Source of the DNA: Christensenellales bacterium | GTDB taxonomy: Bacteria; Bacillota; Clostridia; Christensenellales; CALWSW01 | Direction of reading: 5' to 3' | Assembly: GCA_040768925.1 (NCBI GenBank) | Contig: JAXGLZ010000002.1 | Span: 207,389 to 271,388, forward strand | Length of the DNA stretch: 64,000 nt | Shown: positions 53,189-58,184 of the stretch, piece after piece | How the letters are laid out: every line of letters starts with the position of its first letter | How positions within the stretch are numbered: position 1 is the stretch's first letter | The notes under the pieces: generated by a model | The model's input: only the letters and a program-made list of their open reading frames with translations | What the model was told of the DNA's origin: nothing | Database searches by the model: none | Made by a program: the position numbers and the translations under genes

Positions 53189-54196
53189 ATGTTGAATTTA
53201 CAAAAGGAATTTTTGGATTTTCACGAAAACATAAAGTTATCTGATGAGAACGCTACACTCAGAGAAAAAAGAGAGATTTTACTTAACAAGTTGTCGGAGA
53301 ATATTTGTGAAGAAGCAGCTACATATACGACGTTTAACCAAGGAAGTTATGCAATGGGGACTGGAATCAAGCCGGAAGATGATGATTACGATATTGACGT
53401 AGGTATTAAATTTGATATAAATAAGGACGATTATTCTGATCCCGTCAAAGTTAAGAAATGGGTTAGAGACGCTCTAGAAGGCCACACCAAAAGCGTAAAA
53501 ATTCGACGTTCCTGTGTTACGGTAACATACCAGAAAGATAATGAGCCGATATACCATGTGGATTTTGCGATCTATGCTGGTTTGAACAATGATGGCAAGT
53601 TATATATCGCTAAAGGTAAAGAATTTTCAGATGATGAAAACAAAAAGTGGGAAGTCTCTGACCCTCAAGGATTAATTACAACAATTAAAAACAAACACAA
53701 AGACGATGATGCAAAACAATTCCGTAGAATAATTAGGTATCTTAAAAAATGGAGAACTCATAACTTTTCATCGGATGGGAATGAGGCTCCTACAGGAATC
53801 AGCCTTACTATTCTTGCATATGACCTTTATTCTGTTTTCAAAACATTTGATTGGTCACAACAAAAAAATGTCTACGATGATTTTTCGGCTCTATATAATT
53901 TAGCAGTAAGTATAAAAAACTCATTTAGTTATATCTGGAATAATGAGGATTCGGAATGGTATCATACCATCTCAACAACTTTGCCAGTTGAACCTTCTAA
54001 CAATCTTTTTGATAAGATGACAGATAAACAAATGAATCGTTTTTATCAAAAAATCGAAACATTAGTAAACAAGTTAGATGATGTAAAAAAGAAAGATAAA
54101 CGCTCGGACGCTTGTGCTATTTTAATAAATTTGTTCGGAGATGAATTCCCTTCTACCGTTGATAAAAGCATGGTCGGAACTTCTGAATCGGCATAA
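53189..54196 (+). CDS. CBASS cGAS/DncV-like nucleotidyltransferase (CD-NTase)
   Basis: QGSYAMGT...YDIDVG, HVDFA third Asp, IIRYLKKW, LFGDEFP, C-terminal ...TSESA tail. Confidence 0.9.
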   Translation: MLNLQKEFLDFHENIKLSDENATLREKREILLNKLSENICEEAATYTTFNQGSYAMGTGIKPEDDDYDIDVGIKFDINKDDYSDPVKVKKWVRDALEGHTKSVKIRRSCVTVTYQKDNEPIYHVDFAIYAGLNNDGKLYIAKGKEFSDDENKKWEVSDPQGLITTIKNKHKDDDAKQFRRIIRYLKKWRTHNFSSDGNEAPTGISLTILAYDLYSVFKTFDWSQQKNVYDDFSALYNLAVSIKNSFSYIWNNEDSEWYHTISTTLPVEPSNNLFDKMTDKQMNRFYQKIETLVNKLDDVKKKDKRSDACAILINLFGDEFPSTVDKSMVGTSESA

Positions 54197-54206
54197 GGGT
54201 TTATTA

Positions 54207-55931
54207 ATGAACAATGAAAATATATTAAAAATTATTCAAAATCTTAATCAAAAGCGTACAGTCAATTTTACGCTTTGTGAAGTTACCAAACCAGAGTATT
54301 CACAAGAATACTCTGGTTTGGTAACACTTGCAAATTATGAAACTGTCAGTCTTAATATTGCATTTTGCGCCCATTTCCCCTTATCTTTACCTAAAATATA
54401 CGTAAAAGATAATACTTCGTTTCGTGCTCATGTGGGCTCTGATGGCAAAATATGCTTATTTGATTCTAGTTCTGTTCTTATTAAGCAAAATATGGCCGAC
54501 CAAATATTGATAGACTGTTTTGATCGAGCAATACAGATATTAAATATAAATCCCGGTAGTAAAGAGTATAATGATGAAGTTTGCCGAGAATTTGACTCCT
54601 ATTGGTTTTCTGTAATGGCAAAAAAAACATACTCTTGCCTTGACGTTCATGATATCCAATTTGCTGAGTATCCTATGATTATCTCTAAAGGTGTAAGTGT
54701 TGTTGCTGCAACGAAAAATGAAGCAGAAGTTATTCTTAAGAATAATTTTGGAGTTCCAATTAACGAAGATACATTCGACAGAAAATGCATTGTAATTAGA
54801 ATTCGAGATGGCAGCAATATGATACCTTTAGCAAAGTCATTTAAATGGAGTGCTGTTAGAAGATATGTAATTGAAAACACATCATCATCTGTCAAAAGAG
54901 CATTTAAGAAGTTTCTTAACAAAAATGTCAAGCATATAGTACGATACCTACTATTAATATATCCTACAAAAGAGGGTGAAATATTATTTGGTTTTCGCTT
55001 AGAGTTTAATAACGCCAGATCTAGTAAAATTGAAAATTCATCAAGTTGTAAGGTTGAGAATACTTTCTGTGAAAGAATTGATTATAACTACTTGCTAGTT
55101 AGGGGAGGCGCAACACCTATCCTTAAAAACAAAAATGTATTGCTTCTAGGCTGTGGTTCAATAGGAGGATATATTGCAAACAACATTTGTCAAAGCGGTG
55201 CTACAAACCTTGACATTTTGGATGATGATATTTTTCAGGCTGGAAATGTTCATAGACACTGGCTAGGTTTCGACTGTATACACCCTAATAAAATAAGATA
55301 CAAATCGGACTTAGTGAAAGAAAAATTAGAAAACAAATATCCGTATGTAGATATTGATTCCCTGAATTTTATTGATCGCAAAGTTGAAACGTTTTTAGCT
55401 GATATAAGCAGACTGAAACATTATGATCTAATAATATCTGCATTGGGAGAGCCCACACTCAATTTGGAAATTAACAAATTGTTATATGAGCACTCAATTA
55501 CTGTACCGTTCCTATGTTGTTTCAATGAGCCTTACGGTATTGGTGGGCACGTTATAGTGGTTAATTTGGATAGAAAGTCTTGTCTACAGTGCCTATACAC
55601 AGATTTAATATCAAGCGAAATTATATCATTTAGAGGAAGTTTAGTTGCGCCAAATCAAAACTTTAAAAAAAACGTATCGGGATGCAGTAGTTCATTTGTC
55701 CCATATAGTTGCATTGATTCTCAGCAAACAGCTATACTCGCTACCAGAAAATCTATAGACATATTAGAAGGTCACCTAACCAAGAATATGTTATATTCTT
55801 GGTTAGGTGTTGCGGACAATTTTATAGATCAAGGCTATATTCTTTCGGCGCAATACTTAAATAACACAGAAAAAAGTTTTATATCCATTGATACCTTTGC
55901 AAATCCAAATTGTCCAGTGTGTAAAAATTAA
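54207..55931 (+). CDS. cap2: CBASS Cap2 (E2-E1 ubiquitin-transferase-like)
   Basis: E2: FP..LP...HV....ICL; E1/ThiF: GCGSIGG, NVHRH, CLQC, GC, CPVC. Confidence 0.88.
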   Translation: MNNENILKIIQNLNQKRTVNFTLCEVTKPEYSQEYSGLVTLANYETVSLNIAFCAHFPLSLPKIYVKDNTSFRAHVGSDGKICLFDSSSVLIKQNMADQILIDCFDRAIQILNINPGSKEYNDEVCREFDSYWFSVMAKKTYSCLDVHDIQFAEYPMIISKGVSVVAATKNEAEVILKNNFGVPINEDTFDRKCIVIRIRDGSNMIPLAKSFKWSAVRRYVIENTSSSVKRAFKKFLNKNVKHIVRYLLLIYPTKEGEILFGFRLEFNNARSSKIENSSSCKVENTFCERIDYNYLLVRGGATPILKNKNVLLLGCGSIGGYIANNICQSGATNLDILDDDIFQAGNVHRHWLGFDCIHPNKIRYKSDLVKEKLENKYPYVDIDSLNFIDRKVETFLADISRLKHYDLIISALGEPTLNLEINKLLYEHSITVPFLCCFNEPYGIGGHVIVVNLDRKSCLQCLYTDLISSEIISFRGSLVAPNQNFKKNVSGCSSSFVPYSCIDSQQTAILATRKSIDILEGHLTKNMLYSWLGVADNFIDQGYILSAQYLNNTEKSFISIDTFANPNCPVCKN

Positions 55932-56405: not shown

Positions 56406-56444
56406 AAATCAAAGTTACAAATGATTATTCGGGAGGGAGCTTAT

Positions 56445-58184
56445 ATGAGACTAAAATGGTTACACATATCGGATATTCATTATCATATAAACAATTATGA
56501 ATCCATAATGCTGCGAAGAGATTTATTGACAAGAATTACTGGTTCAAAAGATCTCGAACCGTTTACGCATGTGTTTTGCACAGGCGATGTTACAGATAAA
56601 AATGGTGTGATAAGTAGTGATCTTCTACAATATATGCAAGATATCGCAACAGCAGCCGGTGTAATTAAAGACAACTTTGTTATTGTTCCAGGTAACCATG
56701 ATCATAACAGAAAAAGTATCAGCGATATTCTAACAGGAATTTATGATTATGATGATACTACCTGCCTACAAGAATCGAAGGACAAAAGATATATAGATAA
56801 TAACATCAAAAATCTTTCGTCTACCCACATTCAGAAGTTGCTTGAAAGTTTTTTTACATTCAACCAGTTTTATCAGGAGTTTAAAGGTAACCCCTATTAC
56901 TCTAATTATATAAATCCGCATATTGTCGATATAAAGCAGTATGACAATTATAATATACTAAGAATAAATACGTCTTGGCTTGATAGAGATTCAAATAATG
57001 CTGAACTACGTTGTGGTATAAATAAGTTGGTTGAAATATTAGAAAAGAGTTGTTTAAAAGAAGATTGCATCAATCTTGCAGTAGGCCATCATCCATTACA
57101 CTGTTTTGAAATAAATGAATGCAATAGAATCAAAGATATCTTATACAGAAATAATATTGGAATTTACTTATGTGGTCATGTACATAAACCTTTTATAAAT
57201 TATGACTTACAGTACGACATTTTAGAAATAGGTTGTTCAACTGGAAAATCCGATGATTATTGCCCCGGCGGATATACAATTGGAACAATGGACACCAATC
57301 TAAATTGCTATAAAATTGAAATGTTTAGATGGAAGAATGGATCGTGGTATACAGAAATAGACATCCCGAATGCCGATGAAAATGGTAAGTTTTACTTTAA
57401 CACAAAAAAATATAAACATTATACTGATAAAATAGCAGTAGCATTTAAAGTATATGGTAGCAAATTATCATTAAATGAAATTACTGAGACTTTCGGAGAT
57501 GATAAATATGAATTGATACAATATCCTTACACTAATATAGATATCCAAGATATAGAATGGGAAAAACAGAAAAACCATGTTATTGAATTTGCAAAACAAA
57601 TATTAGCTTTATCAGATAAAAGCATTTTTGTATATCCAATTGCGCCGATTCCAATGTTAATTCAATTAGGATACGAATTACAAAATAATTCAGAAATGAA
57701 AATATTTCAATACGACAGAGAATGCCACAAATGGGTATATGATGCTGAAGATAATATATGCTCAATTAGCGTAAATAGCATTATTAAAAATGCGAGCAAA
57801 CTAGCTCTTATATTAGCTACTTCCACGTCCGTTTTAGATGAACAAGTCAATATCCATATTGATAAAAAATTTGATATATATAGATTTGATTCAAGTACAA
57901 AAAAGGTCGGATGCCCTTTGTATCATAATCAATATATTGCAATAATTGATGAGGTATTTAAATCATTAGATGCCATAGCAAATAAATATCAAGAAATACA
58001 CGTATTTGCAAGTATCCCAGCAGGAATGGCTATAGAGTTTGGAAGGAGACTTCAAAAAGGCATTTATCCAACTATTATTTTGTATAACTATTATCATGGT
58101 TATTCGAAGTCAATAACTATAAATGAAGCAAAACGCCGTAAACCTAAGCTGATAAATCGTTTAAGATGTCTTTTTAGGCATTGA
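56445..58184 (+). CDS. CBASS effector: calcineurin-like metallophosphoesterase fused to SAVED
   Basis: SDIH, GDVTD, GNHD, GHHP, GHVH; C-terminal APIP..IQLGY, FQYDR, IHVFASIP..AIEFGR, YNY..GY. Confidence 0.8.
   Translation: MRLKWLHISDIHYHINNYESIMLRRDLLTRITGSKDLEPFTHVFCTGDVTDKNGVISSDLLQYMQDIATAAGVIKDNFVIVPGNHDHNRKSISDILTGIYDYDDTTCLQESKDKRYIDNNIKNLSSTHIQKLLESFFTFNQFYQEFKGNPYYSNYINPHIVDIKQYDNYNILRINTSWLDRDSNNAELRCGINKLVEILEKSCLKEDCINLAVGHHPLHCFEINECNRIKDILYRNNIGIYLCGHVHKPFINYDLQYDILEIGCSTGKSDDYCPGGYTIGTMDTNLNCYKIEMFRWKNGSWYTEIDIPNADENGKFYFNTKKYKHYTDKIAVAFKVYGSKLSLNEITETFGDDKYELIQYPYTNIDIQDIEWEKQKNHVIEFAKQILALSDKSIFVYPIAPIPMLIQLGYELQNNSEMKIFQYDRECHKWVYDAEDNICSISVNSIIKNASKLALILATSTSVLDEQVNIHIDKKFDIYRFDSSTKKVGCPLYHNQYIAIIDEVFKSLDAIANKYQEIHVFASIPAGMAIEFGRRLQKGIYPTIILYNYYHGYSKSITINEAKRRKPKLINRLRCLFRH

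Follow-up and report, generated by a model that had tools for sequence, protein, structure and literature searches.

A predicted type II CBASS operon of a Christensenellales bacterium with a metallophosphoesterase–SAVED fusion as its only effector candidate

What does an anti-phage system attack when the killing domain joined to its signal sensor is a metallophosphoesterase? This question is raised by an operon in a 64,000-nucleotide stretch of a Christensenellales genome (contig JAXGLZ010000002.1; hereafter the window, numbered from its first letter), where four intact plus-strand open reading frames (ORFs) fill positions 53189-58184 and encode a cGAS/DncV-like nucleotidyltransferase (CD-NTase, here called the cyclase), the E2–E1 fusion Cap2, the JAB protein Cap3 and a metallophosphoesterase–SAVED fusion. 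A preliminary description, made from the sequence alone, had placed an AT-rich four-gene operon here and called it a complete type II cyclic-oligonucleotide-based system of signalling against phages (CBASS), a type whose definition, as applied here, reportedly comes from Millman et al. 2020. We found the ORFs at exactly these positions, with a GC content of ~0.31 next to flanks of ~0.55-0.60, and Pfam and PADLOC detect the CD-NTase, Cap2, Cap3 and a sensor-bearing effector. On this evidence from sequence, the locus is probably an anti-phage operon of type II CBASS that is functional and was acquired horizontally. The whole statement, in which the effector is a phosphodiesterase acting on nucleotide-type small molecules and not an Mre11-like DNA nuclease, carries a probability of roughly 0.4. 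The value of the locus lies in this open substrate question, set beside a well-anchored cyclase and sensor, and not in a new architecture; what is new here is a CdnB-like cyclase paired with a Cap5-like SAVED domain, and the YydB-type fold of the phosphoesterase.

The cyclase gene (53189..54196, +; 335 aa, C-terminus ...TSESA) is followed by Cap2 (54207..55931, +; 574 aa), the JAB/JAMM isopeptidase Cap3 (55947..56405, +; 152 aa) and the effector (56445..58184, +). The longest Cap2 ORF (54141-55931) overlaps the cyclase gene, and 54207 is likely the better start, as it has an AAGGG Shine-Dalgarno sequence just past the cyclase stop. For the effector, whose longest ORF runs from 56421 to 58184, the likely start is the ATG at 56445, which has GGGAGG seven bases upstream, lies 39 bases from the Cap3 stop on the same strand and gives the 579 residues first assigned to this protein. 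GC content is 0.29-0.34 across 53.5-58.5 kb, compared with 0.48-0.62 in both flanks. PADLOC CBASS models match all four proteins (E-values 1.5e-42 to 1.2e-126) and cover each of them over its full length, and NCBIfam agrees with the assignments at scores below its equivalog cut-offs. Apart from the phosphoesterase–SAVED gene, the ORF list and the PADLOC scan contain no effector-type gene in the operon, in agreement with the original view that the fusion is the sole effector.

Judged from alignments of homologues, the operon is intact in every catalytic residue that matters, because those of all four proteins are kept. For the cyclase, Cap2 and Cap3, homologues were taken from the fetched loci described below, giving 36 sequences per alignment. 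The cyclase (PADLOC Cyclase PDLC00795, 1.2e-126; Pfam DncV-like_NTFase 3.6e-14 and SMODS 6.7e-12) has G52, D68, D70 and D125 invariant and S53 in at least 90% of sequences. In Cap2 (PADLOC E1-E2 PDLC00837, 1.6e-126; Pfam Prok-E2_B 2.1e-08 and ThiF 5.7e-17), the invariant positions are H75, C83, G315xG317xxG320, N347, R350, K366 and C493, together with the two CxxC pairs C459/C462 and C569/C572. Cap3 (PADLOC JAB PDLC00896, 1.5e-42; Pfam Prok-JAB 5.7e-08; NCBIfam Cap3 model 3.5e-24, below cut-off) keeps the JAMM residues E33, H97xH99, S107 and D110 without exception. The effector, numbered from 56445, carries D10-x-H12, G47-D48-x-x-D51, G83-N84-H85-D86, H215-H216 and G244-H245-x-H247. The 47 aligned effectors (the window protein and 46 family members) all share G47-D48, V81-P82-G83-N84-H85-D86, G214-H215-H216 and G244-H245-x-H247, and at least 90% of them have D10 and H12; a second alignment that includes stand-alone phosphoesterase relatives keeps the same core residues. 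The preliminary description had reported all catalytic motifs as intact. All are indeed present and nearly all are conserved, the exception in conservation being the second Asp of GDxxD, D51, which the window protein has and the family does not conserve.

The effector matches PADLOC family PDLC00736 ('Effector, Endonuclease') at 8.6e-106, with protein residues 9-559 aligned to profile positions 1-544 of 561. Pfam places Metallophos (6.6e-14) at ORF residues 13-257 and SAVED (1.2e-27) at ORF residues 397-567, and an AlphaFold model built on a 47-row alignment (predicted local distance difference test (pLDDT) 88.2, predicted template modelling score (pTM) 0.73) splits into a metallophosphoesterase domain at residues 1-322 (56445..57410, +) and a SAVED sensor domain at residues 326-561 (57420..58127, +; NCBIfam 7.6e-26). 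With its metal-binding motifs and, in the model, an alpha/beta sandwich fold, the N-terminal domain belongs to the calcineurin-like superfamily; it is the Metallophos domain, and no HNH domain was matched in the effector by Pfam or PADLOC. Burroughs et al. 2015 are said to have noted the phosphoesterase–SAVED architecture. The class is already catalogued as a modelled PADLOC family, and a review names a 'calcineurin-like phosphoesterase domain' among SAVED-linked killing domains (PMC10419184), which agrees with the earlier remark that such fusions are known from comparative genomics. PDB searches and targeted literature searches, the latter covering few subscription journals, returned no characterised or solved phosphoesterase–SAVED protein and no substrate for one, and the effector likewise has no characterised Cap match of this architecture there, as had been supposed.

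A protein search yielded 150 relatives at E ≤1e-5 among 6487 candidates. Among the best 120 of these 150 matches, the nearest complete relatives (P0002-P0004) are 50-55% identical, one 376-aa fragment is 100% identical and 91 of 120 clusters bear SAVED. A C-terminal S24 (LexA/UmuD-like) peptidase domain follows SAVED in 61 of the 91 SAVED-bearing clusters (P0010-P0081; it also occurs in, for example, genomic locus L003). These relatives are mostly 680-710 aa long, the window protein is without the domain, and the sites Cys-Gly, GDSM (Ser) and T-x-KR (Lys) are each present in at least 90% of the 61 sequences. The self-cleaving module is thus complete and suggests a second gate, perhaps one tied to RecA or to damaged DNA.

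How constant is the company that this effector keeps? One genome for each of 185,579 species was scanned; at least 599 stretches matched, 352 relatives were confirmed and the best 80 were kept, giving 79 loci to which the window proteins were compared by tblastn. The phosphoesterase–SAVED fusion appears to be a rare CBASS effector class, as only 16 loci among these best 80 of 352 relatives carry it. Most of the hosts belong to Clostridia; Bacteroidales, Fibrobacteres and Spirochaetia are represented by one genome each. The order cyclase-Cap2-Cap3-effector holds in 14 of the 14 loci that include upstream DNA (L001-L004, L007-L015 and L068), whereas L006 is a 3.9-kb contig that starts at the effector gene and L005 (7001-8077) holds a 5'-truncated remnant, a 270-aa ORF adjoining a 524-aa ORF on the minus strand; in the 7 kb upstream of it neither the cyclase nor Cap2 nor Cap3 was found. 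We compared ORFs within 4 kb of the operon between the window and 13 loci that are complete (L011 was excluded, since its effector runs off the end of the locus), and no flanking gene is common to more than three of these 14. By this comparison of gene content, the four genes are a self-contained module with the phosphoesterase–SAVED protein as its only effector candidate. The other PDLC00736 operons (from Ruminococcus, Flavonifractor, Clostridium magnum, Sedimentibacter, Bacteroidales and others; L001-L015 and L068) thus share the two-domain effector, its catalytic residues and the four-gene order, although the window effector is only 26-40% identical to those of the genome loci. In a scan of viral contigs we found 11 relatives, of which the sole full-length one (L092, 30%) is uninformative on phage carriage because it sits at a contig edge that cuts off the upstream genes. 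A tblastn search of phage records with the effector gave no match; among plasmids there were eight records, of which only one, from Nostoc, covers at least 80% of the query (21% identity), the others matching single domains.

The sensor is the better-anchored half of the effector. That the C-terminus is a SAVED domain had been proposed, and both the Pfam match and the fold bear this out. All six phmmer matches of the domain in the PDB are Cap5-type SAVED chains, the best being 8ysq (8.8e-08), and the same Cap5 chain is also the best fold match (VIA Z 26.8; root-mean-square deviation (rmsd) 2.8 over 235 residues). Next come 7rws (Cap5 with cyclic GMP-AMP (cGAMP), Z 26.2), 7rwk (25.9), 7rwm (25.8) and 8fm1 (24.0), then the Cap14 SAVED with 2',3'-cGAMP (23.3), Cap4 SAVED (22.2 for 7yib; 18.4 for 6vm6, with the cyclic trinucleotide 2'3'3'-cAAA), a viral SAVED protein with ring-nuclease activity (22.0) and CRISPR-linked SAVED proteins (19-21). 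In these model comparisons the order favours a cyclic dinucleotide over a trinucleotide, along a shallow slope. Oligomerisation induced by a cyclic dinucleotide activates the enzyme fused to the Cap5 sensor (PMC8568899 and PMC12804361).

The cyclase points the same way. Its PDB matches are 8ysc/8ysd (1.9e-87), 8ysn (1.1e-77) and 7ljo (6.8e-14), the 8ys series coming from Deinococcus wulumuqiensis according to Foldseek entry titles. Sequence matches suggest a CdnB-like enzyme, a call made from the best PDB matches, with a tree that holds no reference clades, because the cyclases of 8ysc/8ysd and 7ljo are named CdnB in PMC12804361. Together with the Cap5-like SAVED domain, the CdnB-like cyclase suggests that the signal is a cyclic dinucleotide. 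CdnB02 enzymes of Bacillus thuringiensis and Clostridium botulinum produce 2',3'-cGAMP (PMC10402079), and in CdnG-Cap5 systems the signal is 3',2'-cGAMP (PMC12804361 and PMC8568899).

Our cyclase tree holds 36 sequences, namely that of the window, 14 others linked to phosphoesterase–SAVED effectors and 21 linked to other SAVED effectors; loci without a cyclase match of more than 250 residues were left out. The 21 cyclases of other SAVED effectors all fall on one side of a branch (99/97), and the window cyclase stands next to them as sister (94/91), away from two further lineages linked to phosphoesterases. It therefore forms a lineage of its own, sister to HNH–SAVED cyclases and not to the other phosphoesterase-linked cyclases. 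Of three partner effectors of the 21-member clade tested by Pfam, two have HNH and one SAVED only, and the alignment of one of the three to 8ysq, a Cap5 chain, runs end to end (3.9e-28). An effector swap, with the window cyclase nested in the HNH-linked clade, was considered and is unsupported because the tree makes it sister to that clade and not a member (94/91, not starred).

The small-residue tail of the cyclase (TSESA), singled out in the preliminary description as suited to Cap2 conjugation, is present, and its S-x-S-A end is shared with the 21-member clade nearest to it. Cyclase C-terminal Gly or Ala is reportedly used for Cap2 conjugation (Ledvina and Jenson 2023). Among the other 35 cyclases, 31 end in G or A or have an internal S-x-S-A end, the remaining four ending in ...SNY (L010), ...SFAE (L068), ...SAKL (L025) and an 'L' after SESA. 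One to four residues extend beyond S-x-S-A in 7 of the 21 clade cyclases (L025, L030, L031, L034, L043, L045 and L072); by analogy with ubiquitin precursors, these may require C-terminal trimming before Cap2 conjugation.

What, then, does the phosphoesterase cut? In VIA comparisons with the whole model (residues 1-322), the best-scoring enzymes are Rv0805 (Z 20.0), a purple acid phosphatase (19.0), GpdQ (18.9), acid sphingomyelinase (18.2), SMPDL3B (18.1) and Lmo2642 (17.1), with the nucleases at 12.3-15.8 (Mre11 15.8 and below; SbcD 14.2 and 13.8). A model of the domain alone (52-row alignment; pLDDT 92.3, pTM 0.92), which shows a helical insertion at residues 90-147, has one Foldseek match far ahead of the rest: chain 9a6c_B, Bacillus subtilis YydB (E 5.3e-29; template modelling score (TM) 0.89; rmsd 2.2 over 337 columns; 24% identity), the target itself being an integrative model of YydD-YydB. 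SMPDL3B, GpdQ, purple acid phosphatases, acid sphingomyelinase and Rv0805 follow (E 9e-11 to 4e-9), and the first Mre11 entry stands at rank 50 (1.3e-6). No NCBIfam SbcD or Mre11 profile matched the window protein at E ≤0.01. By its modelled fold, the domain is thus YydB-type and nearer to small-molecule phosphodiesterases than to Mre11/SbcD. The PADLOC 'endonuclease' label is not secure because small-molecule phosphodiesterases and phosphatases outrank the nucleases in both structure searches; what supported it in our analysis is superfamily membership and weak SbcD/Mre11 matches of stand-alone relatives. A homodimer prediction with two copies of residues 1-325 (score 0.00, mark 0.42) is no evidence on oligomerisation in either direction.

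The nearest fold, YydB, is without SAVED and acts with a separate partner, YydD; to our knowledge, its function has not been established. Rv0805, GpdQ, Lmo2642 and SMPDL3A/B have the same five metal-binding motifs (Foldseek E 1e-10 to 7e-9) at 10-18% identity, and lack both a sensor domain and the helical insertion of the window's domain. Mre11 and SbcD share superfamily and motifs but rank below the phosphodiesterases, and the window operon is without the Rad50/SbcC partner; nor is any flanking gene that might serve as one common to more than three of the 14 loci compared above.

The phosphoesterase also occurs outside CBASS. Eight stand-alone or differently fused relatives all match PDLC00736 over its first 290-380 profile positions; seven of the eight match candidate PDC-S60, and below cut-off they match the NCBIfam models 'DS9_1 anti-phage phosphoesterase' (8/8) and 'DS8 anti-phage protein' (5/8). 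Among the matches listed, the phosphoesterase is fused to NACHT and TIR/SEFIR-like modules (P0106 and P0108-P0119), and in the ESM Atlas the same fold is joined to SAVED, nSTAND NTPase, AAA_16/TPR, GAAD and radical-SAM/Fer4_12 domains. Judged from such fusions, many predicted conflict systems have this fold in common as their output domain, and the identification of one substrate would explain many of them, because the YydB-type module recurs in this role.

We can sketch how such a system might work. From what is described for characterised families, Cap2 would conjugate the cyclase through its C-terminal Ala (...SESA) and so prime it, and Cap3 would reverse this step. On infection, the cyclase would make a cyclic dinucleotide; the likeliest product is a cGAMP isomer or cyclic di-AMP, perhaps with a 2'-5' linkage like those of CdnB02 and CdnG systems. 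The Cap5-like SAVED domain would bind this signal and oligomerise, oligomerisation would switch on the predicted dinuclear-metal phosphoesterase and the infected cell would stop growing. Candidate substrates are nucleoside and deoxynucleoside triphosphates, NAD-like dinucleotides or cyclic nucleotides. We favour small molecules because phosphodiesterase folds outrank Mre11/SbcD, because the operon has no Rad50/SbcC-like partner and because Kaur et al. (PMC7159879) predicted that the calcineurin-superfamily effectors found in conflict systems are nucleotidyl phosphodiesterases. The most specific form of this proposal, a phosphodiesterase gated by a cyclic dinucleotide (perhaps 2'-5'-linked cGAMP from a CdnB-type cyclase) that depletes a nucleotide or small-molecule phosphodiester pool without cutting DNA, is one that we advance tentatively. 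If it is true, small-molecule depletion would add to CBASS a chemistry of killing that is so far undescribed, and the effector would stand as prototype for a YydB-type immune phosphoesterase module, one that occurs in fusions with STAND NTPases, TPR/AAA_16, GAAD, TIR-like and radical-SAM domains as well.

Several observations weigh against the small-molecule proposal or parts of it, and some of them would fit a different use of the same CBASS, in which the phosphoesterase, once activated by the signal, acts as an Mre11/SbcD-type nuclease on DNA (or RNA) and kills by degrading the chromosome, like Cap4, Cap5 or NucC. This alternative, at less than even odds, stands only a little behind the small-molecule reading. 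PADLOC names the effector family 'Endonuclease', although that label is an annotation and not a test. Stand-alone relatives of the domain have weak N-terminal matches to models of SbcD (8.2e-07 and 3.6e-06) and Mre11 (5.5e-06), and Mre11 and SbcD share the fold at the Z values given above; the window protein itself has no such match, and the small-molecule enzymes outrank them in both structure searches. The gap in Z and E between phosphodiesterases and Mre11/SbcD is moderate, however, and a shared fold in a model gives no substrate. The closest fold, YydB, comes from a model of its complex with YydD; should YydD be an ABC-type ATPase, the two would resemble an SbcCD-like ATPase–nuclease pair, which would favour a nuclease, but the CBASS operon encodes neither a capping domain nor a Rad50/SbcC-like partner. 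The sister clade of the cyclase uses HNH–SAVED nucleases (Pfam HNH in two of three tested), and most characterised soluble SAVED-fused CBASS effectors, such as Cap4 and Cap5, are nucleases. On the side of the signal, the assignment to clade B is based on best PDB matches and not on a reference phylogeny, and the SAVED fold ranking is shallow (26.8 to 22.2), leaving room for a trinucleotide. The setting also weighs against the proposal: the operon has a GC content of 0.31 in a host of ~0.58, which leaves expression there not assured, and of the 41 genomes searched a single one, that of the window, has the island DNA. These last two points, with the truncated effector remnant in L005, would suit an operon carried along, silent or in decay, by an island acquired recently, and functionless in its host. 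This we regard as distinctly improbable, since the four frames are open at full profile length, all catalytic residues are kept, Shine-Dalgarno sequences are intact and a near-identical copy exists in a metagenome.

Two further targets can be imagined for the phosphoesterase. It could hit phosphodiesters of the envelope or of lipids (glycerophosphodiesters, lipid head groups or teichoic-acid-type precursors), given that SMPDL3B, GpdQ and acid sphingomyelinase are among its top solved neighbours. However, no transmembrane or lipid-binding model of Pfam or PADLOC matched the effector (there was no separate prediction of transmembrane segments or signal peptides), and the same fold neighbours fit a nucleotide substrate equally well because SMPDL3A binds a nucleotide (entry title 'with 5' CMP'), which makes an envelope target improbable. 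The protein could also be a ring-nuclease-like regulator that degrades its own SAVED-bound signal, with the real effector elsewhere. The cyclic-nucleotide phosphodiesterases Rv0805 and Lmo2642 are close fold neighbours, the viral SAVED ring nuclease matches at Z 22.0, and Kaur et al. count calcineurin-type enzymes among cyclic-nucleotide cleavers (PMC7159879). Even so, a regulatory role is very improbable: the operon has no other effector gene and none is common to more than 3 of the 14 loci, the genome encodes a single SAVED protein in total, and the fusion holds the effector position in 14 of 14 complete loci.

How does this predicted system compare with those already studied? Closest is the CdnB-Cap5 CBASS of D. 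wulumuqiensis, reportedly described by Yang et al. 2025 in Int J Biol Macromol, which supplies both the closest solved cyclase (8ysc/8ysd/8ysn) and the best match to SAVED in fold and sequence (8ysq); its killing domain, however, is an HNH nuclease, whereas that of the window is a metallophosphoesterase. CdnG-Cap5 systems of Asticcacaulis, Lactococcus lactis, Pseudomonas syringae and Vibrio cholerae have SAVED domains at Z 24.0-26.2 to that of the window, but differ in cyclase clade and in using an HNH effector with no metallophosphoesterase. BtCdnB-Cap14 of B. thuringiensis, with 2',3'-cGAMP as its signal, likewise has a CdnB-type cyclase and a DID active site (PMC10402079), yet it is a type I two-gene system without Cap2 or Cap3 and its effector is a membrane channel. 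We envision the window copy as a practical starting point for biochemistry because it is compact and intact and has close solved relatives of both its cyclase and its SAVED domain.

The operon is the last cargo of a GC-mosaic island of ~18 kb (~40.4-58.4 kb) beside a tRNA-Leu gene. On the left, core genes (carB, pyrF, pyrC, pyrB, a phosphoribosyltransferase gene and a LytR-family gene) end at 39969, and ARAGORN places tRNA-Leu(GAG) (40311..40394, +) at the left edge of the mosaic region, where it is a likely integration site. Along the island, GC content runs from 0.41-0.49 through 0.53 to 0.31. On the right, synteny with a genome of the same genus (G002; CopA, a lipoprotein and CopZ) begins at ~58930, and the region of the CopZ-like HMA protein (58919-59128, -) and the CopA-type P-type ATPase (59845-62328, -) has 77-82% DNA identity to same-genus genomes. 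The other side of the G002 contig had no match to the left flank of the window, so that the left boundary is set by the tRNA, the GC profile and gene content only, and the direct repeats included no clear att pair, only module duplications. The CBASS DNA occurs in 1 of 41 genomes (the window's own and 40 relatives), and a megablast of positions 52400-58450 gave no match in plasmid records. A single metagenome contig of 1045 bases was found that spans the Cap2-Cap3-effector junction with 1 mismatch in 1045; because this near-identical DNA comes from an independent source, the element is, as far as sequence can tell, real and recent.

The CBASS shares this mobile island with a tetracycline-resistance gene, the two riding together. 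The latter, a ribosomal protection gene of the tet(M/W/O/S) family (42766-44841, +; GC ~0.41), scores 1138.7 bits against NF033148 (cut-off 1100), and its alignment to the profile begins at residue 51, which puts the probable start near 42916. DUF3825, sigma-70 region 4 and LysM genes lie between it and two adjacent large serine recombinases (49385..52386, +; 460 and 539 aa), both of which have Resolvase, Recombinase and Zn_ribbon_recom domains and are CcrB-like and XisF-like, below cut-offs. Against PADLOC, the other island genes gave nothing but a weak match of a sigma-like protein to a CARF model (2.4e-4). An HTH_17 gene (52992..53165, +; 57 aa; Pfam 2.7e-05) ends 24 bases 5' of the cyclase gene, and its product shares 57% identity with the N-terminal module of a 731-aa protein that is encoded upstream of the L001 operon. 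It is possibly a CBASS regulator or a gene of the element; the helix-turn-helix is a generic N-terminal module and the protein has no PADLOC match.

At the edges of the operon, a promoter-like site (TTGCTA-17-TATAAT, 10/12 match; 52930..52958, +) lies 5' of the HTH gene and the operon, and is weak given 26 such sites in the region as opposed to 26.8 in shuffles. A consensus scan placed a terminator-like hairpin (58310-58335) with a T-run at 58310..58345 (+), an 11-pair stem then TCTTTTTCTA, a pattern match and no more. Between the effector stop and this hairpin we observed a 68-aa minus-strand ORF (58100-58306) with a hydrophobic stretch; it overlaps the last 85 bases of the effector gene, is without a PADLOC match and may not be a gene. 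Finally, a small Spo0A_C-like gene of 260 bases is present in two copies of 82% identity (41487-41746 and 52579-52838), each preceded by a similar hairpin and upstream stretch (41074-41122 and 52398-52446, 11.09 kb apart). From its sequence, the duplication looks like repeated module junctions of a mosaic island.

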